64,000 nucleotides of DNA from positions 3,670 through 67,669 of the forward strand of contig JAZUGG010000121.1 of assembly GCA_045641105.1 (NCBI GenBank). The letters run 5' to 3'. Position numbers and translations under genes: made by a program. How positions within the stretch are numbered: the first letter of the stretch is position 1; every line of letters starts with the position of its first letter. Below, piece after piece: positions 46 through 48,959 of this stretch. A model generated the notes under the pieces. It did no database searches. It saw only the letters and a program-made list of their open reading frames with translations, and had not been told where the DNA came from. This stretch comes from Ruminococcus sp. (GTDB taxonomy: Bacteria > Bacillota > Clostridia > Oscillospirales > Ruminococcaceae).

Positions 46-648
46 TTAATTTGCCTCACGCACAGTGAACATACGCTTTGTCTGCGGTACACGGAAAAGA
101 ATGAGTGCACCGAGGGTAGTCAGCAGTATTTCAGGCAGCATATATGCGCCGTTATATACAAGACTGTAAATATACTTGTTTTCTGCGACAAAATCAAGGC
201 TGTCCCAGATTTTACCTGTTGCGGCAAAAATTACAACACCGCTCATGAAATGGCTTGCAAATCTCAGTAGCATTACCATTATTGAGCCGCCTATCCATCC
301 TTTTATGCCGAATTTTCTGAAAGCACCTGCAAATCCGAGAACGGTGTAGGCGATGATGTAATCAAACATCACACAGCCGACAAGCATCGATGCTGATAAT
401 CCCCAGCCGAAAACGCCGTCTCTGACAGCACCCTGAAAAAGTTGGAATGCGGCAAAGAGGAATGATACGCTTAATCCCTTGGCAGTTCCGTGTCTGATGC
501 TGAAAGTACATATCGGCAGCATGGACATAAGAGTTATAGATCCGCCGAATGGCAGAAGTCTCTGAAAAGGTGTAATGAAGCTTAGAGCAATCGCAAGCGA
601 CAACATTACAGCTCCTTCAACAAGGGTACGGGTTTTTGAGTTTTTCAT
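46..648 (-). CDS. thiT: Energy-coupling-factor thiamine transporter S component (ThiT/YuaJ)
   Basis: Hydrophobic ~200 aa protein with GGSITL, RHG..KG and SLVYNGAYMLPE motifs; lies under a TPP riboswitch; start moved to MKNSK (RBS GAAAGGAAG). Confidence 0.9.
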   Translation of the reverse strand: MKNSKTRTLVEGAVMLSLAIALSFITPFQRLLPFGGSITLMSMLPICTFSIRHGTAKGLSVSFLFAAFQLFQGAVRDGVFGWGLSASMLVGCVMFDYIIAYTVLGFAGAFRKFGIKGWIGGSIMVMLLRFASHFMSGVVIFAATGKIWDSLDFVAENKYIYSLVYNGAYMLPEILLTTLGALILFRVPQTKRMFTVREAN

Positions 649-704
649 AGAAATACTTCCTTTCAAAAATAGTGAGTGCAGGAAGTACCGAATTTCCGTG
701 GTGT

Positions 705-736
705 ACAAAAAATGCACACCCTATCGGAGTGTGCAC
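705..736 (-). terminator. Intrinsic terminator of the TPP riboswitch expression platform
   Basis: Minus strand GTGCACAC-TCCGATAGG-GTGTGCA followed by TTTTTTGT, between the aptamer and the thiT RBS. Confidence 0.75.
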
Positions 737-755
737 AAAGTAAGCTTAGATACTT

Positions 756-832
756 GCTTCCTACGACGGTACTAACCGACAGGTTCAAAGGGTCAGATAA
801 AATCTTCTCAGCTGAAAACAGCTCCCCTGCAA
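756..832 (-). ncRNA. TPP riboswitch aptamer
   Basis: Minus strand GGGGAGCTG..CAGCTGAGA..GACCCTTTGAACCTG..GGTTAGTACCGTCGTAGGAAG matches the THI-box consensus (CTGAGA, ACCC..GAACCTG, CGTAGG); upstream of thiT. Confidence 0.93.
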
Positions 833-856
833 ATCTTTATTAAATTTACAACAGAT

Positions 857-885
857 ATTATACCATATCAAAATGAATTTGTCAA
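857..885 (-). promoter_or_regulatory. sigmaA promoter for the riboswitch-thiT transcript
   Basis: TTGACA-17 bp-TATAAT on the minus strand, overlapping the stop of the upstream gene. Confidence 0.8.
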
Positions 886-3410
886 GCGGTAACTATGTTG
901 TTTGCCTTTTGGAGATTGAGTTTCTCGACAGCTTGTTCTCTCATTTTATATTTGAGTATCTTTCCGGCGGCATTCATCGGGAAACTGTCTACAAAGTCAA
1001 CATAGCTCGGACATTTATGTTTAGCCATTCTGTCAAGGCAGAACTGCTTTATTTCAGCCTCATCGCAGGTCACGCCTTCTTTGAGGATAATGCAGGCCAT
1101 GATCTCTTCGCCGTAGTCCTCACTTGGAACACCGATGACCTGAACATCCTTTATCTTAGGATTGGTATAGAGGAAGTCCTCTATTTCCTTCGGGTAGATA
1201 TTTTCACCGCCACGGATTATCATGTCCTTGATACGGCCTGTTATCTTAAAATAACCATCCTCGGAACGTCGTCTTGCAAGGTCTCCCGTATGCAGCCAGC
1301 CCTCGGAGTCAATAGCGGCAGCAGTAGCCTCAGCCATTTTATAGTAGCCCTTCATGATGTTGTATCCTCTTGCGACAAATTCGCCGTCTGTATCGTCAGG
1401 AACTTCCTGATTTGTCTCAGGATCAACGATCTTGCATTCTACACCGAAAATAGGACCACCGACAGTGTTTACACGCTGTTCAAGAGAGTCTGTGGTCTTA
1501 CTCATGGTAGTTGCAGGGGATGCTTCTGTCTGACCGTAGGTTATGCATATTTCAGACATATGCATTTTTTCGATAACGTCCTGCATAGTTTTGATAGGAC
1601 AAGGTGAACCTGCCATGATACCTGTTCTCATGTGTGAAAAATCGGTTTTTTCAAAATCAGCATGGCCAAGCATAGCAATAAACATAGTAGGAACGCCGTG
1701 GAAACAGGTAATTTTTTCTTGATTTATGCAGGCAAGTCCCTTACGTGGAGAGAAACGTGTAATAGGGGACATGGTAACACCATGAGTTACAGAAGCAGTC
1801 ATAGCAAGAACCATGCCGAAACAATGGAACATAGGTACTTGTATCATCATGCGGTCAGCTGTGGAGAGATCCATGCAGTCACCGATAGCCTTGCCGTTGT
1901 TGACAACATTGTAGTGTGTGAGCATAACGCCCTTAGGAAAGCCTGTTGTACCTGATGTATACTGCATATTGCAGACATCATGTATGCTTATGGTCTTGCG
2001 GACAGCCTCAACCTCACTGTATGGCACATTTTCAGCAAGAGCAACGGCTTCATCCCATGTGTAACAGCCGTTGTTTTTTGAATCAACTGTAATGACATTT
2101 CTGAGGTACGGCAGTCTTTTTGAGTGGAGCTGACCGGGCTGACAGGTTTCAAGTTCCGGACAGAGTTCCTTGATTATGTCCACATAATTTATATTCTTGA
2201 TTCCGTCTATCATAATAAGCGTCATTGTATCTGACTGACGGAGAAGATATTCTGTTTCGTGGATGCGGTACTCGGTGTTCATGGTGACAAGAACAGCACC
2301 TATTTTGGTAACTGCCCAGAAAGCAATGTACCATTGAGGAATATTAGTAGCCCATATCGCAACATGGTCGTCTTTTTTAACACCCATAGCAAGAAGTGAA
2401 CGTGCAAAAGTATCAACATCGTCACGGAATTCAGGATATGTTCTTGTATAATCAAGTTCGGTATAGCGGAAGGCATACTGATTCGGGAACTGGTCGCAGA
2501 TACGGTCAAGGATATCAGGGAAGGTGTAGTTGAGAATACGTTCCTTCGGCCACGGATACTGACCGTCACCTCTCATATTTGTCTGGAGAGAGTGCTTGTG
2601 TTTGGTTCTGTATGGTGACATGAATTCGGCAAACTGCGGAATAACGATACCGCCGTCACTGAGGTCTCTTGCCCAGCGTTTTACCCATTCCAGAGAAATA
2701 TAGCCGTTGTAATTAATAGCTTCAACAGCCTTTATCATTTCCTTGACAGGAATATCACCTGTACCCATAATACGGTATTCAACAGTGCCGTTTGTATTCA
2801 ATACGCTGTCTTTTACCTGAATATACTTGATGAATTCACCGAGATTTGCAACTGTAGTTTCAGGGGATTCACCGCCGAAACGATAAGGGTGATGCATATC
2901 CCAGAGAGCAGCTACCTTTCGGCTTCCTACTTTTCTGAGTACTTCGGCAAGACGTGCTGTATTTGAATAAACACCGTTTGTCTCAACGAGAAGTGTGACA
3001 TTGTATTCTTCAGCGATAGGAACGAGCTTTTTCAGTGATTCGATGATAAGCTCATCATCAACATCATCTTTTGGTGCGGGTTCAAGGTCAGCGAGGATCC
3101 TTATGAAAGAAGCGCCTATCTTCTGAGCAAGTTTGGCATATTCAAGAACTTCATTTTCGGCAATGTCAAACTTATCGCTGAATTTAAGACACGCACCGGA
3201 AGAAAGGCAAGGAATTTCAAGATTTAGTGAACGCAGCTTCTCAACAGTTGCAGGGAGTTGTTTTTCGGTAAAAGGCTGTGCTTTGACCGAAAAGATCTCA
3301 TTGCCGAGACCTCTGATCTCGATACCGTCGAAACCGAAGTCCTTGGCTATAGAATAGATATCCGACCATGCCCAGTCAGGGCAGGCGAGAGTTGAAAAAG
3401 CAATTTTCAC
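882..3410 (-). CDS. Fusion of a xylose-isomerase-like TIM barrel (AP_endonuc_2) and an acyl-CoA synthetase (AMP-binding)
   Basis: N-terminal ~270 aa has AFSTLACP, LVETNG, LWDMHHP, QVKD, SLEW; C-terminal part has YTSGTTGFPKG, YGQTE, TGDL, RIKDMIIRGGENIYP, GKI. GTG start at 3410 after AAAGGA. Confidence 0.85.
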   Translation of the reverse strand: MKIAFSTLACPDWAWSDIYSIAKDFGFDGIEIRGLGNEIFSVKAQPFTEKQLPATVEKLRSLNLEIPCLSSGACLKFSDKFDIAENEVLEYAKLAQKIGASFIRILADLEPAPKDDVDDELIIESLKKLVPIAEEYNVTLLVETNGVYSNTARLAEVLRKVGSRKVAALWDMHHPYRFGGESPETTVANLGEFIKYIQVKDSVLNTNGTVEYRIMGTGDIPVKEMIKAVEAINYNGYISLEWVKRWARDLSDGGIVIPQFAEFMSPYRTKHKHSLQTNMRGDGQYPWPKERILNYTFPDILDRICDQFPNQYAFRYTELDYTRTYPEFRDDVDTFARSLLAMGVKKDDHVAIWATNIPQWYIAFWAVTKIGAVLVTMNTEYRIHETEYLLRQSDTMTLIMIDGIKNINYVDIIKELCPELETCQPGQLHSKRLPYLRNVITVDSKNNGCYTWDEAVALAENVPYSEVEAVRKTISIHDVCNMQYTSGTTGFPKGVMLTHYNVVNNGKAIGDCMDLSTADRMMIQVPMFHCFGMVLAMTASVTHGVTMSPITRFSPRKGLACINQEKITCFHGVPTMFIAMLGHADFEKTDFSHMRTGIMAGSPCPIKTMQDVIEKMHMSEICITYGQTEASPATTMSKTTDSLEQRVNTVGGPIFGVECKIVDPETNQEVPDDTDGEFVARGYNIMKGYYKMAEATAAAIDSEGWLHTGDLARRRSEDGYFKITGRIKDMIIRGGENIYPKEIEDFLYTNPKIKDVQVIGVPSEDYGEEIMACIILKEGVTCDEAEIKQFCLDRMAKHKCPSYVDFVDSFPMNAAGKILKYKMREQAVEKLNLQKANNIVTA

Positions 3411-3466
3411 AATAATCAATCCTTTACTTAGTATAAAAATTCAAGGCATCTTTGAGGTAAACTGCC

Positions 3467-3730
3467 TCAAAACAGCTTTTTTTTCAAAAAGTCAGGGTCA
3501 GATGTGATCTTCTGACGAATAAGTTCATTAAGTTCATTTTTCAGCATATCTGCCGATTCATCTGAAAACTCCTCAGCAGCATATTCCTTTGGGCGCATTC
3601 CGCTTGTTCTTGCAGCAGCTTTTGCCTGTTTTTCTGAATTGAAACGTTTAGCAAAAACACGGCTGTAAACAAAAGCTTTTGAAGAATACAGGTATTTCCC
3701 GTCAGAAAAACGCCTGATAGTCCATTTCAC
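3467..3730 (-). CDS. Small basic hypothetical protein
   Basis: 87 aa ORF with RBS GAGGTG, 10 bp after the YdcF-like gene on the same strand. Confidence 0.6.
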   Translation of the reverse strand: MKWTIRRFSDGKYLYSSKAFVYSRVFAKRFNSEKQAKAAARTSGMRPKEYAAEEFSDESADMLKNELNELIRQKITSDPDFLKKKLF

Positions 3731-3739
3731 AGCATCACC

Positions 3740-4501
3740 TCAGCCAAAAAGCTTATAAAATGCAATTCCGAACCATTCTCTTACCCAGTAGGTAGGAACG
3801 ATATACCATGAAGTATAACCTGAGATGTTGGTCGGGTGCATATCAATCTTTTCTGCCAGCATTTCTGCACGGTATTGATGAAATCCGTCAGTTACAAGAG
3901 TAAACTGCTGCGGGAGTGCATTATCTTCAGCTATTTTCTTTGAGAATTTCAGGTTTTCAACGGTATTTACGGATCTATCCTCCATAAAAATGCGTTCACG
4001 GCTTATGCCTTTTTCGGTAAGATATTCCATCATGCACTGCGCCTCGCTTATGACCTCATCGTCACCTTTTCCGCCTGAAACGATAACATTTACGCTGTCA
4101 TGCTGACTGAGATAATCATAGGCGGCATCAAGTCTGCGTCGGAGCATAAGGCAAGGCTTTCCGTTTTTGACCTTGCAGCCGAGAACTATAAGTGTAGTGT
4201 TATCATTTTTTGGCGGATCATGTATCTCTCTTACCATCAGTATGCTCATAATAACTGACAGCACTATACAGATGCACACGATAACGGAAAAAACACATAT
4301 GAAAACCTTTCCGACCGGCTTATCCCAGATGCCGGAGACAAGCTTTCTGAAAGGTTTCCAGAAAATGAAGATAAGAGTCAGAATGCCTGATATGAGCATT
4401 CCTGCAATATTTCCGACATTCAGAATATTAGTGAGTATCGGCGCTGCGAAAAGTCCGAAAATCAGCAGACAAATAATTGCAGGTATGATTTTTACTTCCA
4501 T
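3740..4501 (-). CDS. YdcF/DUF218 family membrane protein
   Basis: N-terminal TM helices, then IVLG, RRRLDAA, VSGGKG, SEA..M, EDRSVNTVENL, VTDGFHQYRA, VRE motifs. Confidence 0.85.
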   Translation of the reverse strand: MEVKIIPAIICLLIFGLFAAPILTNILNVGNIAGMLISGILTLIFIFWKPFRKLVSGIWDKPVGKVFICVFSVIVCICIVLSVIMSILMVREIHDPPKNDNTTLIVLGCKVKNGKPCLMLRRRLDAAYDYLSQHDSVNVIVSGGKGDDEVISEAQCMMEYLTEKGISRERIFMEDRSVNTVENLKFSKKIAEDNALPQQFTLVTDGFHQYRAEMLAEKIDMHPTNISGYTSWYIVPTYWVREWFGIAFYKLFG

Positions 4502-5352: not shown

Positions 5353-5551
5353 AATAGAACCTCTTTCACCGCATCAATGCGGAAGATATACGTCATGTAT
5401 ATCCTGAAAATAAATAAAAAATAACCTGTACTGATTATTAAAAAATAAAATTAATGGAGTTACAATATGATATTACGTAATATTATACCACAAAATGAAA
5501 GAGAATTCAAGTATTTCAGATATATTTTTAGTTTTTCAAATTTTTTGACGA

Positions 5552-8237: not shown

Positions 8238-8885
8238 TCAAAATATATTTTTCAATTCATCAAGTGATTCAAGATAATAGTCAGACAGCCCGATGATACG
8301 CTGTTTATCGGCATCGGCGGCTTCATCATAAATACCTGCGGTGACAAATCCTGCACTTACAGATGTTTCAATGCAGTGAAGCGAATCTTCAATAACAAGT
8401 GTTTCATCAGGCTTACAGCCGAGTCTCTCTGCACCGCCGAGAAAGATATCAGGCTTTTTTTTGCCCATAGGATACTCAATATCTGTAAGCAGAAAGGCAA
8501 ATCTGTCAGCGATTCCGCATCTTTTAAGCACAGCTTCGGCAAGTCCTTTATAGGTTGCGGTTGCTACGCCATACGGAATACCTGTACTGTCAAGGAAATC
8601 AAGTGCTTCATGTACGAAAGGTTTCAGTTGGATATTCTGCTCATACTGCACACGCACAAGCTCCTCGATACGCTTTATCACATATTCCTTTGTGAGGTCA
8701 AGTCTGAAAAAATCAATGAAATACTGTGACGATTCATCCACAGACATGGTTTTCATGCGGTCTGAGATATCTTCGGGAGGATCAGTAACGCCGTTCTCCC
8801 TTAGGAATTCACGGTCAATGTTATACCATATCTTCATGGAGTCGATGAGAGTGCCGTCAAGGTCAAAAATTACGCCTTTAATCAA
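8238..8885 (-). CDS. HAD-family phosphatase
   Basis: FDLDGTLIDS motif I, KKPDIF, IEDS. Confidence 0.88.
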   Translation of the reverse strand: MIKGVIFDLDGTLIDSMKIWYNIDREFLRENGVTDPPEDISDRMKTMSVDESSQYFIDFFRLDLTKEYVIKRIEELVRVQYEQNIQLKPFVHEALDFLDSTGIPYGVATATYKGLAEAVLKRCGIADRFAFLLTDIEYPMGKKKPDIFLGGAERLGCKPDETLVIEDSLHCIETSVSAGFVTAGIYDEAADADKQRIIGLSDYYLESLDELKNIF

Positions 8886-10122
8886 CCTGAACCTCCTCTG
8901 GAACGGGGATATCCATAGGCTGCGGATCTGTTTCAGGCGGAATATCAGGTATTGTTTCCGGAATATATGGCTCAGTAGTTTCTGGCTGTATTTCAGATTC
9001 TGACGGCAGTTCCGCTTCCGTAGAAGGATCGGTTATGACTTCTGACGGCTCGGCAACATATTCAGTCACAGGCGGGATATACTGAGCGATATATTCACTT
9101 CTGCGAGGCTCTGCCGTGATACGTGTCGGAGGCTCTGTAGGCGGCTCAGTAACAACTGTTTTACCTTCCTTTTCAGCCTTTTCACGTTCTTTGCGCTCTT
9201 TTTCAGCCTGTTTTCTTTCTTCTTCTTCCTTTTTGCGTTCCTGTTCATTACGGCTGAGATATTTTGAACGCTTGTAATTCTTATCAGGATTATACTCGCC
9301 CTCTGTATCGGAATCGCCGCAGATAACAACTGCTTTTTCTTCAAGCAGTTCATACATTCTCTCGAATTGTTCAAGATTGTATTCCATATTTCCACGCAGA
9401 GGATCGGCAACATATACAATGCCCTTATCAAGGTCATAACCGTAAATTGTCATACAGTGCTGCATACCGTTGAACCACATTTCCTCGCCGTCCTCGGTAG
9501 TCCATCTGAGCTCATTCGGACATTCCCACAAGTCAATTGTAGCCCATATAATAAGCGGTCTGCCTTCTTCGATCTGATAGAACAGTTCTTCAAGCTTTTT
9601 GCCGCTTATATCGACAGCGTAGCACGGAGAATTGACTGATTTGAAATAATCATCAGCTGTCTGGACTATAACAGGAGGGAGACAGCCGAATCCGTCGCAG
9701 AATTTCGGATCTCCGATATATGCGTGGTTCATAGTGGTTGAGCCTTCTGTATCAAGAGGCATGAATTCATCGGCAAGTTCCTCCTTGTCGATGTCAAATC
9801 CGAGAAAATTGAGTGTCTGGCAGAGAGCGGTGACTTCACAGCCTGTAGGAAGTTCAGGTTCCTGCATTACAGTCTCAAAATTTTTTATTACTGATTTTCT
9901 GGCAATTTTGTGACCTTTCGGCATAGTCACATCAAGTGAGAATGGTTCGGTTGTTGGTTCTGTCTCTTTTTCTTTTGTGACAGCTTCGCTCTCCATGCTG
10001 ATAATGTCTTGTTTTTCCTGGGAATTGGCCTTGGTTTCGGTAACTGTTGAGGCTTTTCCGCAGGCTGTCATACACAGAAGTGCGGCTGAGACAGCAGTGA
10101 ATTTAAGAAATCTGCCTGTCAT
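8878..10122 (-). CDS. Lipoprotein with peptidase C39-like domain and charged Pro/Glu/Thr-rich tail
   Basis: Lipobox MTAC; QEPELPTGCEVT (Cys), QHCMTIYGYD (His), VADP (Asp); low-complexity C-terminus. Confidence 0.75.
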   Translation of the reverse strand: MTGRFLKFTAVSAALLCMTACGKASTVTETKANSQEKQDIISMESEAVTKEKETEPTTEPFSLDVTMPKGHKIARKSVIKNFETVMQEPELPTGCEVTALCQTLNFLGFDIDKEELADEFMPLDTEGSTTMNHAYIGDPKFCDGFGCLPPVIVQTADDYFKSVNSPCYAVDISGKKLEELFYQIEEGRPLIIWATIDLWECPNELRWTTEDGEEMWFNGMQHCMTIYGYDLDKGIVYVADPLRGNMEYNLEQFERMYELLEEKAVVICGDSDTEGEYNPDKNYKRSKYLSRNEQERKKEEEERKQAEKERKEREKAEKEGKTVVTEPPTEPPTRITAEPRRSEYIAQYIPPVTEYVAEPSEVITDPSTEAELPSESEIQPETTEPYIPETIPDIPPETDPQPMDIPVPEEVQVD

Positions 10123-25108: not shown

Positions 25109-25954
25109 ATGAAAAAGACAAAGATGTTAGCAGGAATTCTTGCATTATCAATGATTTTTGCAGGCTGCGGCAAGACAGACGACGAAAACAAGGATTCTTC
25201 AACAGAAGCAACTACTGTTGCAACAACAGAAGCAGAGACAACAGAAGAAGCTACAACAGAAGCTGAAACTACAACAGAGGCTGAGGAGCTTGGCGAAGAA
25301 GATCCTGAGGAAGAAGAACCAGCAAGCGAAGAAGAACTTCAGGAAGTAAAGGCTCTTATTGCTGCATATGAAACTGCTTTAAAGGCAGATGACTATGAGA
25401 CAATGGTTGACTTAACTGACGTAGAGCTTCTTCAGTACATAACAAAAGGCACAGAAGGCACAAAGGAAGAACTTACTGCACTTTTAAAGGGTGAGACCGG
25501 CGATGAAAATACAATCGTTGTTAAGCAGGATTACTCAAATACAGTATTTGGTGAACCACACTGCTATAACTCACAGGCTAAGATGTTTAATGATTTCCTT
25601 GCAAGTGATGCAATTGCATTTTTTGCTGAGGAAGGCGAAGGCGTAACAGATGCTGCTGACAAGTACACAATTGATGGCCTTTATTCATTCAGTATGTCAT
25701 CTGACACAACTGCTAATGCTGAAACATCATCTGAAACTGAAGACGGCGAAGGCAGTATGTCATTCAGTTCAAACGGCAGCTTTGATATTGATATGTATGC
25801 TGTTCGCATCAACGGCGAATGGAAGATAGATTCAGGCTTTATTATGGTTGCCGGTATGTATCAGGCATTCAGCGGCATGGCTGATGAAGATGCTGAGATC
25901 GGCTTTGACACAGAAGATGCTGAAACTGAGGAAGCAACAACAGAAGCTGAATAA
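25109..25954 (+). CDS. Highly acidic lipoprotein with Thr/Glu-rich repeats
   Basis: Lipobox FAGC; EATTEAE-type repeats at both ends; promoter TTGCAA-17-TATAAT at 25025-25053. Confidence 0.8.
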   Translation: MKKTKMLAGILALSMIFAGCGKTDDENKDSSTEATTVATTEAETTEEATTEAETTTEAEELGEEDPEEEEPASEEELQEVKALIAAYETALKADDYETMVDLTDVELLQYITKGTEGTKEELTALLKGETGDENTIVVKQDYSNTVFGEPHCYNSQAKMFNDFLASDAIAFFAEEGEGVTDAADKYTIDGLYSFSMSSDTTANAETSSETEDGEGSMSFSSNGSFDIDMYAVRINGEWKIDSGFIMVAGMYQAFSGMADEDAEIGFDTEDAETEEATTEAE

Positions 25955-25976
25955 TCAACAATTGTACAAACAAGTG

Positions 25977-29737: not shown

Positions 29738-29895
29738 GGGCGGCTCTAAAAACCCCTTCTGGGAAAAAGGAGCTATGCACAGCATCTGTTGCGTCAAGCC
29801 CTCTCGTAGTGCGAAAGCACGCCTTCAAGGGCTTTTCTTGAATCTACTGTACCTATCTGTTTTTTCTTACTCAAAATGGGTTTTTAGAGATGCCC
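29738..29895. mobile_element. 158-bp MITE-like element, copy 1
   Basis: Terminal inverted repeats GGGC..CTCTAAAAACCC / GGGTTTTTAGAGATGCCC; ATAT direct repeat on both flanks; 141/158 identical without gaps to 48603-48760. Confidence 0.8.
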
Positions 29896-30058
29896 ATATA
29901 AGTTTTACATTTTTTATAATGCGGATGAAATATTGAAAAATAAATTAATTTGTGATAAAATATTTTTAGAGGTGTCCTTTAGCAGAAAAAAATATGTCCG
30001 CTGAGGATGTGATAAAGCGATTATATTTATGAACATGTTCAAAGGAGTGAAATAGATA

Positions 30059-40095: not shown

Positions 40096-42921
40096 TTATC
40101 TTGAAGTATATTGTTTTGTGGAAAGATTTCTTACCGAATTGAGGACGAGCAGCATTGCCGTACCTGAATCGGCAAATACAGCGAACCACATATTCGGCAG
40201 TCCGAGCAGTCCGAGAATAAGAACTGCGGCTTTGATAACAAGTGCAAAGATGATATTCTGATATGCTATCTGACGTGTTCTGTCAGCAAGACGTTTTGCA
40301 TTTACAACAGCCTCAGGCTCAGAATTGATGAAAACTGCATCAGCGGCTTCAATTGCAAGGTCTGAACCAGTCTGCATAGCACCGCCGACATCTGCACCTG
40401 CAAGAACAGGGCCGTCATTTATTCCGTCACCGACAAACATGACAGGGCCGAATAATCCACGGAAGTTTTCGATTTTTTTGAGCTTATCCTCAGGAAGAAG
40501 TTCTCCGATAGAAGTTTCTATGCCGAGTCTCTGACCTGTAATAGCGGCATTTTCACGTTTATCGCCTGTCAGCATAACTGTGTGTATGCCCATTGAATTA
40601 AGCTTTTCAACGGCAGAAGCGGATGTCTTTTTTACAGTATCGGAAACGACGATTCGTCCTTCCACTTTTCCGTTTACAGCGATATATACGACACTGCCGC
40701 TTTCACCACGCTGTCCCTTCGGAATGGTGATGCTGTATTCGTCCATCATCTTTTCGTTGCCGCAGAGAACATCTCTGCCGCTGATAACAGCTTCGATTCC
40801 TCTGCCTGCGATCTCGGAGACTTTTTCAGGTTTGCCGAGTTTAAGTTTATTCTTATTGCAGTATTCGATGATGCTTTCTGCAACGGGATGAGTTGAAGCC
40901 ACCTCACAGCTTCCGCATATTCTAAGAAGATGCTTGTTGCTGAGAACACCGAATGACTGTATAGAAGTAACAGAGAACGTACCGTTTGTAAGAGTTCCTG
41001 TTTTGTCAAATGCGATAGCCTTTACCTTAGCGAGAGCCTCGATCGATGCGCCGCCTTTAAAGAGAATTCCAAGCTTTGAAGCAGCGCCGATGCCTGAAAA
41101 ATAGGCGAGCGGAACGCTGAGAACAAGTGCGCACGGACAGCTTATTACGAGAAATGTGAGTGCAGAGTATATCCATTTGTGCCAGTCACCGGTGACGATT
41201 GACGGGATAACAGCAGTCAGAACAGCAATAGCAAGAACAACAGGGGTATATACCTTTGAAAATTTAGTAATAAATCTTTCAATAGTCGGCTTTGATGCAG
41301 AGGCATCTTCAACAGCCTGAGCGATCTTTGATACCATTGAATTTTCGGCGGAGGCAGTAGCACGGAGCGTAATGCCTTCAGAAAGATTTATGCATCCAGA
41401 GTAGACAGGATCGCCTGCACGAACTATAACAGGAACAGGTTCGCCGTTGATTGCGGCTGTGTCTATTCTTGACTTGCCTGATTCCACAATGCCGTCAACA
41501 GCAATTCTTTCACCAACCTTTATTCTGAGAATGTCACCGACTCTGATACCATCAGCGGGGATTCGCTTGAATTCGCCGTCAATAAGTACGTCAGCCTCAT
41601 CGACTTTAAGAGCGGCAGTTTCCGTAATGGCTTTGCGGCTTTTTGAAACTGCATAATCCTCAAAAAGCTCGCCGATCCTGTAGAAAAGCATGACACCGAC
41701 GGCTTCGGGGAATTTGCCGATAATAAAAGCACCGACGGTAGCAATGGTCATCAGGAAGTTTTCATCAAAGAATTTCTTAGCCTTCACGTTACGAACTGTT
41801 GATTTCAGAACATTTACACCGAGAATCAGGTAAGAAATGATGAAAAGTATAAGTGTAATCGGCAGACAGTTTGAAACTGCACTGCATACAACAGCACCTA
41901 AGAATATTTCAGCACCGAGAAGAAGTTTTGCGAAATCATATGAAACAGTTCCGTCCCATTCTTCTTTGAAGCTTTTTTTCACATGAACGTATTTGGGGAC
42001 AGGTGCAGGTTCGGATTCAGGCTCATTGTCGTTATCGGCGATAAGTTCTTCCTCCTGAACGAGCTGTGCCGCAGGCTGAGGCTCTATCTCATGTGAGACA
42101 GGTTTTTCCTCAGGTTTATCCTGTTTTTCTTCCGGCTTGTTTTCATCTTCAACAAGTTCATATTTGCCTACAGTAACGCCTTCATATAGACCTTTTTTGC
42201 TTTTGGGAAGCGGCTCGTCGTTATAAAGTTCACCGAGAATTTCCTTATATTCATCTACGATCTCAGGTTCTTCACAGTGTTTTGTTTCTTCCGCAGGCTG
42301 TTCCTCTGCCGCAGTATGTTCATGATGATCTTCGTTATGTTCGTGTTCATGTCCGCACTCACAGGATTCATCATGGTCATGAGTATGTTCGTGTTCTTCT
42401 TCATGAGGCGGTTCAGGTTCATGAACTTCCTCAAGTTCCCTGACAATTTCCCTGATGCGGTTTCTGCGCTGGGATTCCTTTGCAAAACAGGGGATAATTT
42501 CAATATCAGGTTCAACAGAAGCGGCAGTATCCGATATGAGCTTTATCATTTCATCGGAGAAAACAGCAGTAACTCTCAGCTTTTTCAGCGGAAAATTGAG
42601 GACTGCCGATTCAACACCGTCAATTTTTGAAATTGCCTCCTCAACCTTTGTACCGCAGTGTGCGCAGTCGAGGTTATTTACTTCAAACTGTTTTGTAACA
42701 GGTTCAAGAAGCGGAACAACTTCGGCTTCTTCGACAATTTCAGTGACGGCTTCATTCATTCTGCTGATGATATCATCGGATAAATTGCCCATTATCTTCA
42801 GCTTTCTCATCGGAAAGTTGAGAACTGCACATTCAATTCCATCGAGTTTATTAACAGCAGATTCTATTTCCGAGCCTGATGTTTCGTCTTTCAGGTTCAG
42901 AATGGAATAGTCTTTTTCCAT
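40096..42921 (-). CDS. cadA: Heavy-metal P1B-type ATPase (Zn/Cd/Pb type) with extended N-terminus
   Basis: NGEP, SCPCAL, FDKTGTLT, STHP, MLTGD, GDGIND, QNI, FADSG; two HMA-like domains and a His/Glu-rich linker. TTGACA-17-TATATT at 42962-42990. Confidence 0.9.
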   Translation of the reverse strand: MEKDYSILNLKDETSGSEIESAVNKLDGIECAVLNFPMRKLKIMGNLSDDIISRMNEAVTEIVEEAEVVPLLEPVTKQFEVNNLDCAHCGTKVEEAISKIDGVESAVLNFPLKKLRVTAVFSDEMIKLISDTAASVEPDIEIIPCFAKESQRRNRIREIVRELEEVHEPEPPHEEEHEHTHDHDESCECGHEHEHNEDHHEHTAAEEQPAEETKHCEEPEIVDEYKEILGELYNDEPLPKSKKGLYEGVTVGKYELVEDENKPEEKQDKPEEKPVSHEIEPQPAAQLVQEEELIADNDNEPESEPAPVPKYVHVKKSFKEEWDGTVSYDFAKLLLGAEIFLGAVVCSAVSNCLPITLILFIISYLILGVNVLKSTVRNVKAKKFFDENFLMTIATVGAFIIGKFPEAVGVMLFYRIGELFEDYAVSKSRKAITETAALKVDEADVLIDGEFKRIPADGIRVGDILRIKVGERIAVDGIVESGKSRIDTAAINGEPVPVIVRAGDPVYSGCINLSEGITLRATASAENSMVSKIAQAVEDASASKPTIERFITKFSKVYTPVVLAIAVLTAVIPSIVTGDWHKWIYSALTFLVISCPCALVLSVPLAYFSGIGAASKLGILFKGGASIEALAKVKAIAFDKTGTLTNGTFSVTSIQSFGVLSNKHLLRICGSCEVASTHPVAESIIEYCNKNKLKLGKPEKVSEIAGRGIEAVISGRDVLCGNEKMMDEYSITIPKGQRGESGSVVYIAVNGKVEGRIVVSDTVKKTSASAVEKLNSMGIHTVMLTGDKRENAAITGQRLGIETSIGELLPEDKLKKIENFRGLFGPVMFVGDGINDGPVLAGADVGGAMQTGSDLAIEAADAVFINSEPEAVVNAKRLADRTRQIAYQNIIFALVIKAAVLILGLLGLPNMWFAVFADSGTAMLLVLNSVRNLSTKQYTSR

Positions 42922-43955: not shown

Positions 43956-46748
43956 TCAGGCAATTTTCTTGCAGGCCTCTGCATAATCATAAAGGGCAAC
44001 GCAAAGATTTTTAAGAGATGCATCAGCACTGTCTGACGAAAGAGTATTGTAGATGTAGTCATAAATGCTGTAATCATATCCTTCTATTATCTTATCATAT
44101 TCAGTAGGAATGAATTCTTGTTCAATGTAATAGTATGTTGTACCGCCTTCTGTGCTTGGAAGCTTTATCTTTCTTCCCGGAGCATTCTCAGTGAAATAGT
44201 GACGGAGAACAGTGTTTGTTTTGAGAAGCAGTGATGTGCCATAGTAATCCTCATCGGTTATGCCTTTTGAAGGAGTAATGCTGTTTTTAACCCTTGTAAG
44301 ATCATCAGATGTATACTCAAGCGGATAATCAGCGGACTGATTGAAATAGCAGTTTGCAAATCTTCCATAGTTTATGAAAGCTTCGGCAAATTCTGCATAC
44401 TCAGGCTGAGTGTTTCTGAGCGCTGTGATGTAGTCGCTGACTGTGAAACTGAGTGAATCGACCTTGGATTTGTCGCCGAGAACGATCTGGGCTGTGATAG
44501 GATTGAACATATCCTTTGTTGCAACATGACAACTGAAAATATAGCATTCCTTGCCGTTCTGAGTCGTTTTTTCTGCGGCAGAAACCGGCGCATTGACTAC
44601 AGTATTGTCAGGCATAATGAAGTTTATGGAAGCTTGTTCATCGGCAAGTATTGCATCATCAAGTGTCATATATACATTTACGCCGATAGAACCGTCGATG
44701 TTGATCGAATAGCCTTCAAAACGGGTATTTGTATAAGGATTCTTTTCGCCGCAGTATGAGCAGACATCGTAATGATAATCATGGAACTGAGGATATTCAT
44801 GGAATTTTCCGTTGTTTTCTCCGATTTGGATATTATCCCACTGCTCTTTAGTGCCGCAGTAAATGATCTTGTTGAGATTCTTTGTGCTGTAGAAAATGTT
44901 CTTCTCAATTGTTTTCAGACTTGTCGGGATATAGAGTTCTTTCAGACTGCTGCATCCGGTGAATGCACCTGATTCGATAGTTTCGATATTCTTTGAAAGT
45001 GTAAATTCGCTGAGGTTAGGGCACTGTGCGAATGTTGAATCTTTAAGGACAGTCACGCCGTCAGGCATTCCGAAGCCCTTGAGCGATTCGCAGCCGTTGA
45101 ATGCAGATGCACCGAGATATGTAAGCTGTGAGTCACTTGAAAGAAGCGCATATTTTAAATTATAGCAGTCAATAAATGCGTTGTCGTCGATTTTGGTTAC
45201 AGAGTCAGGAATAGCAACTTCCTCCATACCACAGGCGAAGAATGCCTGAAAACCAATGGTTTTAAGTCCATCCGGCAGGGTAAGTTTTTCAAGTGCATTA
45301 GCACCTGCAAAGCAGTCCTTCGGGATTTCTGTTACTCCTTCCGGGATATTCAGTTCCTTTAAAGGATAGCAGCAGTAGAATGAAGCTTCACCAAGAGAGG
45401 TGAGAGTGCTTGGCAGTTCGATAGTATCCAGACTTTCGGCGCCATAGAAAGCAAAATCAGCGATTGACGTAAGTCCTTCCGGGAAATTGATGTTTTTCAG
45501 CTTTGGATCATGTGCAAATGAATTGAGATTGATTTTTGTAATTGTTGACGGAAGAACAACGGTTTCAAGATTTTCAAAGTACTCAAAGGCACGCACGCCG
45601 GCAGATTTAATGCCTTCTCCAATTACGATTTTCTTAACCATTTTACGGTAATTAGACCATCCGGAAGTGAATGAAGCTGTTCTTTCCTGGTCACGCATTT
45701 CGCAATTTCCGCTGAGTGTGAGAACGCCGTCGGAGGTGATTTTCCAGTTGATATAATCGCTCGAATATTTTCCGTGATCTCTGCCCTCGTAAACCACATA
45801 AGTAAAAGGCGCATTTTGTATAGCGGCATCGCCTACGAAAGCGTTATCTGCGAAACTGATGCCGTCAGGAATATCAAGGCTGGTGAGCTTAGGACAATCT
45901 GAAAAAGCACCCTCACCAACTGTTGCGGCGGGATTTGAAATTTTCAAGCTTTCAACAGAACTGCATCCCTGAAAAGCGCAGTCGCCTATTTTGGTAACAC
46001 TTTCAGGAATATCGATGTTTTTCAGACCTATACATGCTTCAAAAGCGTTGTATGAGATTTCTTTCAATCCGGCAGGTAAGTCGATTGAAGTAAGAGATAT
46101 ACAGCCTGAAAAAGCATAATATTCAATTTCTTCAACTGAGGCAGGTATATTTACATCTGTAAGATTTGAGCATCCCGAAAACATAACTGCACCTATTGAT
46201 TTAATAGAATCAGGAAGAACGACCTTTTGAAGTTTCAGGCTGTCTGCCACGATTGCTCCGTCCATTTCAGTTACGGAATTCGGGAAAACTATTTCCGTAC
46301 AGCCTGTGTTTGAGAAAGCTCTGCTCCAGATCTCCTTAACTGAAGATGGAATGCTGACCGAAGTCAGCTTCGGGGTGTTCATAAAAGCACAGTTTTGTAT
46401 AATGGTGACTGTGTCTGGAATTGATACGCTTTCAAGATTCGGGCAGTCTGAAAAAGAGTATGGGCTGATAGATGTAATGCCTTTTTCAATAATTACTTTT
46501 TTGATCTCAGAACGCCTTAGATCCCATTTAACAGATTTTGCGTTGATCTCATATGGCATTTCGCCGGTACCGCTGATTCTCATTGTACCGTCAGCATCTA
46601 TGTCCCATGCAAAATCGGCAGCGGTATCAGCGTTTGCTGTCAGTACAACTGAATTGTCAAGAAAAGAAGTGAACGGAATAGAATAATTCATAGCAAGAAT
46701 GGATACTACAGCCATAATTCCGGCTATGGTTTTTTTGTGACTTATCAT
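43956..46748 (-). CDS. Large secreted BspA-type LRR protein with uncharacterised C-terminal domain
   Basis: Signal peptide; two LRR_5 blocks each led by W.I..DG..T/R.SG; HDY...C..CG motif; C-terminal FEGYSINIDGSIGVNVY domain; no dockerin or LPxTG seen. Confidence 0.88.
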   Translation of the reverse strand: MISHKKTIAGIMAVVSILAMNYSIPFTSFLDNSVVLTANADTAADFAWDIDADGTMRISGTGEMPYEINAKSVKWDLRRSEIKKVIIEKGITSISPYSFSDCPNLESVSIPDTVTIIQNCAFMNTPKLTSVSIPSSVKEIWSRAFSNTGCTEIVFPNSVTEMDGAIVADSLKLQKVVLPDSIKSIGAVMFSGCSNLTDVNIPASVEEIEYYAFSGCISLTSIDLPAGLKEISYNAFEACIGLKNIDIPESVTKIGDCAFQGCSSVESLKISNPAATVGEGAFSDCPKLTSLDIPDGISFADNAFVGDAAIQNAPFTYVVYEGRDHGKYSSDYINWKITSDGVLTLSGNCEMRDQERTASFTSGWSNYRKMVKKIVIGEGIKSAGVRAFEYFENLETVVLPSTITKINLNSFAHDPKLKNINFPEGLTSIADFAFYGAESLDTIELPSTLTSLGEASFYCCYPLKELNIPEGVTEIPKDCFAGANALEKLTLPDGLKTIGFQAFFACGMEEVAIPDSVTKIDDNAFIDCYNLKYALLSSDSQLTYLGASAFNGCESLKGFGMPDGVTVLKDSTFAQCPNLSEFTLSKNIETIESGAFTGCSSLKELYIPTSLKTIEKNIFYSTKNLNKIIYCGTKEQWDNIQIGENNGKFHEYPQFHDYHYDVCSYCGEKNPYTNTRFEGYSINIDGSIGVNVYMTLDDAILADEQASINFIMPDNTVVNAPVSAAEKTTQNGKECYIFSCHVATKDMFNPITAQIVLGDKSKVDSLSFTVSDYITALRNTQPEYAEFAEAFINYGRFANCYFNQSADYPLEYTSDDLTRVKNSITPSKGITDEDYYGTSLLLKTNTVLRHYFTENAPGRKIKLPSTEGGTTYYYIEQEFIPTEYDKIIEGYDYSIYDYIYNTLSSDSADASLKNLCVALYDYAEACKKIA

Positions 46749-46787
46749 AATGATTACCTCCCTCAATGTAAATCATCCTTATTTCTA

Positions 46788-46945
46788 TTGCTCCACCAAC
46801 TAAATCTTGAATTTTACTGCTTGTCCTGAAGAAGAAATTCTGCGTCAGAAAACCTTGAAATACGCCAGTATTCCTGCGGCTTTCTTCCTTGACTTTCTCC
46901 TTCATTACTTCGCATAAATTATTCAAGACTTAATTGGCGGAGCAA
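46788..46945 (-). mobile_element. 158-bp palindromic element (second subfamily) in the predicted 5' UTR of the LRR gene
   Basis: Inverted ends TTGCTCCACCAACTAAATCTTGAAT / ATTCAAGACTTAATTGGCGGAGCAA flanked by TA; 52-nt core in register with the two MITE copies. Confidence 0.65.
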
Positions 46946-46980
46946 TACAATCTAACCGAATCATTAGATTGTATAAATTA

Positions 46981-47009
46981 AGTATAGCATAAAAATATTA
47001 ATAAGTCAA
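46981..47009 (-). promoter_or_regulatory. sigmaA promoter for the LRR-peptide operon
   Basis: TTGACT-17 bp-TATACT on the minus strand. Confidence 0.7.
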
Positions 47010-47468
47010 TAAAACTTGTTAATATTTTCTTCACAAACAAAATTTTGTAAGAATTTCCTGAAATAGGAGAATTTGCTTGTATGAATTGAATAATAAAAAG
47101 ATGTTATACCTTTGAAAATAAAAGTTAAAATATAATAGTATATAATTAATTCAATAGGGTATTATAAGAAATTGCGGCTGTGTTCAAAAATAATTCATAA
47201 AAAAATTACATATTATGAATGTATTATGAAAATTGTTTTAAGATAAAGTGAATTGAATTATGTTATTTCCGTTATTGGTCAGAGTGCATAAAAACAACGT
47301 GAAAAAAACGTCGTATTGTGCAGTGACAGTACGTGAATCAGTAATTGACTTTGGGGTGAAAATGTGGTAAAATATACTATTATATAAGAACTCAATTGGT
47401 TCTGATACAGAAAAAGCAGTGGTCTATAAATGACACGCTGCAAAAATAAAATATCGGTGGGTGAAAAA

Positions 47469-48596: not shown

Positions 48597-48602
48597 TCAA
48601 TA

Positions 48603-48760
48603 GGGCACCTCTAAAAACCCCTTCTGAGAAAAAACAGCTATGTACAGCATATGCTGTGTCAATCCCTCTCGTAGTGCGAAAGCACGCCTTCAAGAGCTTT
48701 CCTTGCATCTGTTGCACCTATCTGTTTTTTCTTACTCAAAACGGGTTTTTAGAGATGCCC
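48603..48760. mobile_element. 158-bp MITE-like element, copy 2
   Basis: GGGCACCTCTAAAAACCC...GGGTTTTTAGAGATGCCC; AATA direct repeat on both flanks; 89% identical to copy 1. Confidence 0.8.
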
Positions 48761-48959
48761 AATAATTATATATGGCAACAATGCACAAAAATGACAACTA
48801 TTATCTGTGCACTGTTGCCATAACTTTTTTTCATGTTCCGGTAAAAATAGCCAAGACGCTGATTTTTTGAAGAATGTCGAAAATTGCTTGAAAAAAGCTG
48901 ATTTTAGTAGTATAATTAAAAACGTTTTCCACACAAAAATTCAGAAGTGAGGTAATTTT

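Follow-up and report, generated by a model that had tools for sequence, protein, structure and literature searches.

A TA-flanked hairpin of Ruminococcus as a likely member of a superfamily of miniature inverted-repeat elements whose conserved core is selected on one strand

Can mobile repeats that have nothing in common at their ends share a structured centre, and if so, on which strand and for whose benefit is that centre kept? The question is raised by a TA-flanked, near-perfect hairpin of 162 bp, here called E3, that lies upstream of a leucine-rich-repeat (LRR) gene at positions 46786–46947 of a 64,000-nucleotide stretch of Ruminococcus sp. DNA (GenBank assembly GCA_045641105.1, contig JAZUGG010000121.1, positions 3,670 to 67,669; the whole stretch is referred to as the window). 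Two sister hairpins in the window, M1 and M2, have ends unrelated to those of E3 and carry a similar core in the same register. The original prediction for this locus, made from the sequence, took E3 to be a structured element, possibly a mobility signal that doubles as a cis-regulator of the LRR gene. [quoted passage not shown]

Contigs break exactly at 46786 and 46947 around E3 and at 48602 and 48760–48761 around M2, and the loose ends of these repeat contigs give E3 the same borders as the original prediction. The inverted arms (46783–46812 and 46921–46950) are 30 nt long and 87% complementary. As had also been pointed out, all three non-Watson–Crick appositions of the terminal stem (46795A/46938C, 46800C/46933A and 46804A/46929C) are A–C on the plus strand and hence G–U on the minus strand, and both the coordinates and the folds bear this out. 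For the stretch 46783–46950 (168 nt) the folding energy is −80.1 kcal/mol on the minus (z −13.2) and −50.4 on the plus strand; for the exact element the values are −78.4 kcal/mol with six G–U pairs and −49.7 with none. E3 has no coding capacity, the sole open reading frame (ORF) that overlaps it being a mechanical one with a TTG start. Bacterial MITEs of the Correia/NEMIS, ERIC and RUP type are noncoding elements of less than 200 bp with terminal inverted repeats, TA termini and target duplications; they occupy AT-rich intergenic sites in tens to hundreds of copies, and their transcripts are predicted to form long stem–loops (PMC2229807, PMC10969869). E3 resembles them in size, inverted ends, TA, copy number and long hairpin, and fits the general description of such elements, its flanking TA being a putative target duplication. 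M1 and M2 are 89% alike and form hairpins of the same size and strand preference as E3 (M2, taken as 48600–48763, folds at −75.0 on the minus and −59.6 on the plus strand). Together with E3 they are the only long-hairpin elements in the window, all three intergenic, and M2 is missing at the corresponding site of a relative of about 85% similarity (Table 1).

Table 1. Coordinates of E3, its core, the sister copies and neighbouring features in the window.
Feature	Position	Strand	Remarks
E3	46786..46947	minus (structured strand)	Complete miniature inverted-repeat element; borders from loose ends of repeat contigs
TA at E3 left end	46786..46787		Putative target duplication or else terminal dinucleotide
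E3 left terminal inverted repeat (TTGCTCCACCAACTAAATCTTGAAT)	46788..46812		Inverted repeat I1
E3 right terminal inverted repeat	46921..46944		Three A–C appositions with left arm, G–U on minus
TA at E3 right end	46945..46946		Same basis as left-end TA: TA...TA flanks of E3-family copies
Conserved 76-nt core	46828..46903	minus	Proximal outer stem, two internal loops, two helices
Loop strand J1, CAAGGAA	46885..46891	minus	Fixed by search pattern; one change in M1
Helix s1, 5′ strand GAAAGCC	46878..46884	minus	Pairs with 46848–46854; both-side changes at all 7 pairs across families
Loop strand J2, GCAGG	46873..46877	minus	First G in 82/91 cores, position outside search pattern
Apical hairpin s2, AAUAC-UGGC-GUAUU	46859..46872	minus	Loop 46864–46867; 5/6 pairs covary
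Loop strand J3, UCAA	46855..46858	minus	C, A, A in 82, 67, 83 of 91 cores; outside search pattern
Helix s1, 3′ strand GGUUUUC	46848..46854	minus	Pairs with 46878–46884
Loop strand J4, UGACGCAG	46840..46847	minus	M2 reads UGACACAG
M1, sister-family copy	29738..29896	minus	Core 29777–29852; 46.7 bits with independent model R2
M2, sister-family second copy	48603..48761	minus	Core 48642–48717; AATA on both sides
BspA-type leucine-rich-repeat protein gene	43956..46751	minus	Start codon 34 nt beyond E3 border; context
Promoter-like TTGACT-17-TATACT	46981..47009	minus	Upstream of E3 and LRR gene; context, outside element

Consistent with mobility, E3 is present in very high copy number. In public sequencing runs that contain close relatives of the window, read depth over E3 reaches 570–3900 compared with about 10 in its flanks, a 50- to 300-fold excess, and depth over M2 reaches 2000–3000 compared with 10–16. 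The description of E3 as a third element beside a MITE pair was therefore right about its structured core and wrong in treating it as a lone element: E3 is a copy of a second high-copy family, with ends that are under their own constraint. Depth over the ends of E3 is about five times that over its core, which indicates that the ends are common to sub-families with other interiors, as is also seen in the copies that we fetched from other genomes. Judged from the sequences, ends that are shared more widely than the interior are what transposase-binding ends would look like.

The fetched loci, none of which is syntenic with the window, contain about 130 copies. Arm sequence sorts these into at least 20 families, and cleanly delimited copies measure 157–169 nt. 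All 17 E3-family copies from other genomes among the matches listed are flanked by TA...TA. Copies of the M type carry non-palindromic 4-bp AT-rich direct duplications (TTAT, TTTA, ATAT and TATA, and AATA at M2), and the flanks in the largest family are often TTA or TAA. The plasmid collection yielded one copy on a Paenibacillus chromid and no match to E3. Insertions of one MITE into another next to TA were observed at L031 4758–4905, in L055 (minus strand) and in contigs of runs X1/X2 that join 48634 to 46782; one such case is an E3-type element within an M-type arm. We also noted a further family, with ends TTAGGCAACACCGCAC, that keeps the inner module alone (GCAGG-hairpin-UCAAGG).

We next asked how far the similarity between the E3 and M cores exceeds chance. 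As the original prediction had it, the centre of E3 aligns in register over 52 nt with those of the M copies. The alignment is free of gaps and lies 57 nt from the left end in E3 and 54–55 nt from it in M. Identity within this alignment is 28/52, compared with 25–27/52 for the best wrong-orientation windows, so the raw identity alone is at chance level. What the cores have in common are the blocks CTGYGTCA, CCT and TTCCTTG at identical spacing, together with the helix positions. Using the pattern CTGCGTCA-N25-CCT-N9-TTCCTTG, which fixes 18 bases, we found at least 117 loci in a collection of one genome per species (596 Gb), compared with about 17 expected by chance according to our own calculation. 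The matches listed include 91 distinct cores, of which 89 share one three-helix architecture. A covariance model, R2, built from 41 cores and containing no sequence from the window, the E3 family or the M family, recovered all three window copies, E3 with 82.3 bits (E 7e-20), M2 with 52.7 (9e-12) and M1 with 46.7 (4e-10), and beyond these three it had no match below E 0.1 in the whole window; model R1 gave 85.7 bits on the E3 core. Similarity at the level of chance had been named as an outcome that would undo the proposal, and the shared landmarks of the E3 and M cores are not due to chance.

The hosts among the matches listed are mainly Ruminococcus, Oscillospiraceae and other Clostridia of the rumen and hindgut, with further copies in Paenibacillus, Saccharibacillus, Alistipes, Sphingopyxis, a Vibrio, and Myxococcota and Hydrogenedentota genomes. 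In viral contigs, 21 matches were obtained with a relaxed pattern, mostly chance matches in coding sequence; one of them (L003) clearly represents a third family, which combines different ends with this architecture. At the loci from Sphingopyxis and another proteobacterium (L060, L088, L133, L078 and L097), and likewise at L098 (Vibrio), L115 and L127, the core sits within longer, less symmetrical elements. The longer elements of these proteobacterial and L098-type loci carry additional conserved sequence at their flanks, such as TAGGGTCAAAACCC at the left and GAAATGGCTTCGATCTC at the right, and lie between housekeeping genes.

Read on the better-folding strand, the core begins with the outer stem, C, AAGGAA, helix s1 (7 bp), GCAGG and helix s2 (5–6 bp) with its UGNC loop, and returns through s2′, UCAA, s1′, UGACGCA, G and the outer stem. 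Among the matches listed, the first G of s1′ is kept in 78 of 91 cores, and the U, G and C of the s2 loop consensus in 65, 55 and 62, all of them positions outside the search pattern; the E3-family consensus differs from the window copy in this loop, at 46865 and 46866. Across families, both helices and the long outer stem covary, whereas the letters of the loops stay the same. In 57 diverse cores, 86.7% of cells are paired compared with 54.8% in column shuffles, 445 cells are changed on both sides compared with 148, and the covariation score is 0.794 compared with 0.216 in shuffles and 0.14–0.22 in slid controls. These results agree with the proposal of a structured family that keeps its core while its ends differ. 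We found no near-identical inner modules across arm families, which argues against recent exchange of modules and indicates that core and arms diverge together.

The structure also has a preferred strand. In the arms outside the core, the strand that reads CAAGGAA...UGACGCAG contains 449 G–U and 156 A–C appositions, and the excess of G–U over A–C recurs in 17 of 20 families among the matches listed, two families showing the opposite. The reverse strand (CAAGGAA polarity) folds better in nearly every pattern match listed. Structure on one specific strand, as predicted for E3, is thus a property of most of the families. The wobble positions are common to copies of one family, which indicates that they are inherited from the propagating lineage.

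This strand bears no fixed relation to neighbouring genes. Relative to flanking long ORFs, the structured strand of the 130 copies is co-oriented in 77 cases and anti-oriented in 97; between gene pairs that run in the same direction, 12 copies are co-oriented and 17 anti-oriented. Long ORFs contain only 6 of the 130 copies. Of the three elements in the window, E3 runs in the same direction as the LRR gene, M2 is antisense to its neighbours on either side, and M1 occupies a divergent intergenic region. The neighbours of copies elsewhere are unrelated housekeeping genes, and a candidate retron or reverse transcriptase beside the proteobacterial copies was rejected, the neighbours there being PilZ, an M23 peptidase, a kinase and LytB. 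Because orientation to neighbouring genes is random, selection would seem to belong to the propagation or persistence of the element itself and not to regulation of a neighbour.

To ask which proteins may act on the ends, we looked at autonomous elements. Locus L301 contains, at 8379–9681, an insertion sequence of 1.3 kb that is bounded by GGGCATCTCTAAAAACT and ...GAGGTGCCC and has a TTAA duplication, the duplication of M-type autonomous elements having been seen in this one complete copy that was examined. Its protein of 349 amino acids matches DDE_Tnp_1, DUF772 and DDE_Tnp_4, and homologues are named IS5 family transposase in the sources. A metagenome scan with the longer M-type end returned 32 rumen and gut contigs, most of them broken at the repeat; four (L309, L315, L321 and L328) hold full copies of about 1.25 kb with the right end ...GGTTTTTAGAGGTTCCC, each encoding an IS5-type transposase of 342–345 amino acids that starts 54 nt from the left end. 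Over 16–21 nt, the ends of these autonomous elements of the IS5 family (DDE_Tnp_1 with an InsH N-terminal domain) are the same as those of the M family (GGGCATCTCTAAAAACCC), and the 4-bp duplication of L301 is matched by the 4-bp AT-rich duplications of M-type MITEs. Two loci (L290 3983–4090 and L293 6459–6566) carry M-type ends around an unrelated, coreless interior of 105 nt with TTATA on both sides, and L288, near 5440–5485, has palindromes of about 40 nt made of the two M-type ends only. Taken together, the sequences suggest that the ends are the transposase handle and that the core is something else.

Other searches for an autonomous partner were negative. Viral contigs scanned with a 17-nt E3 end gave only chance matches in coding sequence, and a single-protein search of viral contigs for relatives of the L301 transposase returned only itself. 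The 1 Mb of fetched loci contained neither an autonomous core-bearing copy nor core halves lying far apart, as an autonomous element would have them, and clustering all long ORFs of these loci for a recurrent transposase gave housekeeping families only. Two candidates with inverted repeats 0.6–3.5 kb apart (L074 and L094) were rejected, as the repeats flank ordinary genes between separate MITE copies.

We therefore favour a model in which E3 is a non-autonomous DNA transposon of about 160 bp in a large superfamily of whole-length-hairpin MITEs, and in which each family has terminal inverted repeats that are predicted to bind its own DDE transposase, provided in trans. For E3, such a transposase would recognise the ends, mobilise the element and duplicate TA. 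For a selectively relevant part of its life the element would exist as a folded single strand of CAAGGAA polarity, on which the core may act as a protein-recognised or folding-nucleating module, and what is selected would be the element's own propagation or persistence.

Several observations weigh against this model. To our knowledge, DDE cut-and-paste transposition offers no reason for selection on a single strand. The IS5-family elements contain neither the core nor a long hairpin; they share only their ends with the M family, whose interior is not their deletion derivative, and they do not account for the origin of the core. The existence of a coreless MITE with M-type ends indicates that the core is not strictly needed for mobilisation by that transposase; it may still be a mobility signal, as suggested earlier. 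No insertion sequence with E3-type ends was found in the 1 Mb of fetched loci or in the viral contigs, and no empty site was obtained for E3; the TA may be its terminal bases instead of a duplication. The families were gathered with a pattern that fixes the landmarks, which makes landmark conservation 100% by construction and leaves families without landmarks unsampled. Finally, covariation of the arms can also reflect both ends binding one protein and is not proof of pairing; because transposon arms may covary in this way, only the asymmetry between G–U and A–C is specific to pairing.

If a folded single strand is what is selected, is it DNA or RNA? Tentatively, and with low confidence, we favour DNA, because the pairing includes the very terminal bases and because orientation to transcription is random. 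It is possible, if doubtful, that the functional form is instead a long hairpin RNA, transcribed from CAAGGAA to UGACGCAG by read-through or from an internal promoter, whose purine-rich internal loops either bind a protein or undergo processing, RNase III being an example known from Correia, to the benefit of element or host. G–U wobbles occur at an RNA-like frequency of about four per copy, and the unpaired purine-rich loops are conserved between variable flanking helices. There is also precedent in the published cleavage of Correia-containing transcripts by RNase III and the effects of ERIC involving RNase E (PMC10969869). Metatranscriptome assemblies hold both families, in unstranded contigs, broken at the repeat, that may reflect DNA carry-over; the depth of RNA contigs there is 5–10 times that of the adjacent gene, compared with 100–300 times in DNA runs, which fits passive read-through or such carry-over. 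Moreover, an RNA that includes the terminal bases of the hairpin must start outside the element, yet gene orientation is random, and no conserved internal promoter was seen. Nor does the element correspond to a named RNA motif, as had been anticipated: against Rfam 15, the window matched only a thiamine pyrophosphate (TPP) riboswitch elsewhere, the region 46600–47100 had nothing credible at E up to 10, and 15 loci of other families had no match at gathering or permissive thresholds.

An explanation without any selection on the core appears unlikely. It would hold that all copies descend from one ancestral MITE, that the sample is biased and that the G–U excess is a mutational asymmetry (for example, strand-biased C-to-T change). 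The 18 positions fixed by the search pattern are compatible with this, as are the coreless elements with the same ends and the related elements that keep the inner module only. However, positions outside the pattern show 75–90% conservation even as the intervening helices have diverged into several types of pair, the asymmetry tracks the polarity of the element and not the orientation of genes, and the hosts belong to several phyla.

It is very unlikely that E3 is a cis-regulatory leader of the LRR gene with the double role of mobility signal and regulator, under selection on the transcribed strand, as the original prediction had suggested. The local arrangement is inviting: the promoter-like site (47009–46981, minus strand) matches 10 of 12 consensus positions and has a TG, E3 sits between it and the ribosome-binding site of the LRR gene, the stable strand is the transcribed one, and one metatranscriptome contig covers the gene up to 46778. 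A gene-specific leader RNA should, however, keep a constant orientation and a constant downstream gene, whereas these elements occur in hundreds of copies with unrelated neighbours and without orientation bias, M1 and M2 in the window being cases in point, and no conserved association with LRR genes across species was seen. Related strains, moreover, do not conserve the intergenic sequence on the right side of E3. These data argue against host cis-regulation as what is selected in these elements; they separate the structured strand from transcription into the LRR gene, and we take the position of E3 in the 5′ untranslated region to be an accident of insertion. If the promoter-like site is used, the leader would begin with a small 11-bp hairpin at 46945–46974 followed directly by the E3 hairpin of about −80 kcal/mol, which may affect expression of the LRR gene; this is not the reason for conservation of the core. 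The small hairpin corresponds to a perfect 11-bp inverted repeat (ATACAATCTAA / TTAGATTGTAT) between the promoter-like site and the E3 border. In four related runs, reads cover the genes on either side of the spacer 46950–47240 but hardly or not at all the spacer itself, which indicates that it differs between strains.

That a mobile hairpin should carry the core as a signal for single-strand replication or priming, like the orientation-specific ssoA (palA) of about 160 bp in rolling-circle plasmids, can hardly be credited: size, whole-length hairpin and strand specificity are alike, and palA of pE194 is strand-biased (−77.5 compared with −54.4 kcal/mol) with GACGCAG in its 3′ arm, but neither pE194 nor pT181 has a match to model R1 (best 12 bits), the RSB present in pE194 and the CS-6 landmark of ssoA have no counterpart in the core, and the elements of the superfamily are chromosomal repeats with target duplications. 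In pE194 palA (L139 640–790), the GACGCAG lies in an asymmetric internal loop and resembles core strand J4; the model has no match there.

Among known systems, REPIN/RAYT and the palindromic elements derived from IS200/IS605 are analogues, being dispersed hairpin repeats tied to one DNA strand. They lack terminal inverted repeats of this kind and do not duplicate their target. E3 has inverted ends and duplications occur in its superfamily, and we rejected an IS200/IS605-type or REPIN identity. Membership in ERIC was rejected as well, as no model matched an E. coli ERIC copy (L167). In that copy, GCAGGAAG and GGTGACGCAGCG lie close together at 255–285, in an arrangement unlike the core.

The closest described repeat is the Correia element of Neisseria, which has forms of 106 and 156 bp and resembles the E3 superfamily in being TA-flanked with inverted ends. 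Its centre, CAAGGC-N-CCGCAG-hairpin-GCAAGG-N-ACGCCG, has the same order and polarity as the E3-type core. Models built without Neisseria sequences aligned with the 106-bp form end to end and centred, at 26.9–29.4 bits (E 2e-5 to 4e-5), and with other Correia copies weakly, at 17–20 bits (E 0.01–0.03). Three matches centred on the Correia element scored 29.4, 19.8 and 18 bits (E 2.4e-5, 0.011 and 0.033). A match to an already described repeat, which had been set out beforehand as a ground for dropping the idea, is therefore present in weak form. Unlike the E3-type core, Correia has helix s1 mostly unpaired and an outer stem of about 26 bp compared with about 55 bp; its 156-bp form contains a 50-bp insert with an IHF site, unlike E3, and its inverted repeat (TATAGTGGATTAA...) is absent from E3, whose ends are TTGCTCCACC.... 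Judged from these model scores, a distant kinship between the superfamily and Correia is possible. We know of no identified transposase for Correia elements, and should the weak link prove right, it would offer a new approach to how they move.

MITEs are usually viewed as family-specific deletion remnants of insertion sequences, in which the ends are the only functional parts. Here, one central module, with its invariant loop letters, covarying helices and strand-specific pairing, is kept by many families whose ends are unrelated and whose apparent duplications measure two, three or four bases. This points to a second, end-independent requirement in the life of the element, and the 76-nt model with its defined strand provides a handle for finding it. 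In a literature search that was far from exhaustive, we found no earlier account of one structured central module shared by many MITE families that differ in ends and in duplication length and that belong to several phyla, and none of a consistent strand asymmetry in MITE pairing. More speculatively, the core could be the recognition module of a host- or element-encoded factor that acts on the folded single strand. The hairpins would then form a distinct mobile class with interchangeable, transposase-specific ends that extends from gut Clostridia to Paenibacillus, Bacteroidota, Proteobacteria and maybe Correia; we regard this broader proposal as conceivable and not as likely. On a practical level, the elements are very abundant in Ruminococcus and Oscillospiraceae genomes of the rumen and hindgut, where they break assemblies and adjoin genes.

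Some other features of the window were noted in passing. The TPP riboswitch lies at 741–838 on the minus strand (66.7 bits), upstream of an ORF at 46–717, and just upstream of it, at 857–886, the minus strand reads TTGACA-17-TATAAT. The direct-repeat families D3 and D4 (857, 5482, 12746, 15516, 19879, 61010 and 61600) look promoter-like rather than mobile. The ORF at 25109–25954 contains an in-frame, 15-nt periodic repeat of the ACAGAAGC type (25196–25276 and 25910–25960), and an in-frame repeat with 48-nt spacing is found at 42319–42396, in the N-terminal part of a P-type ATPase gene.

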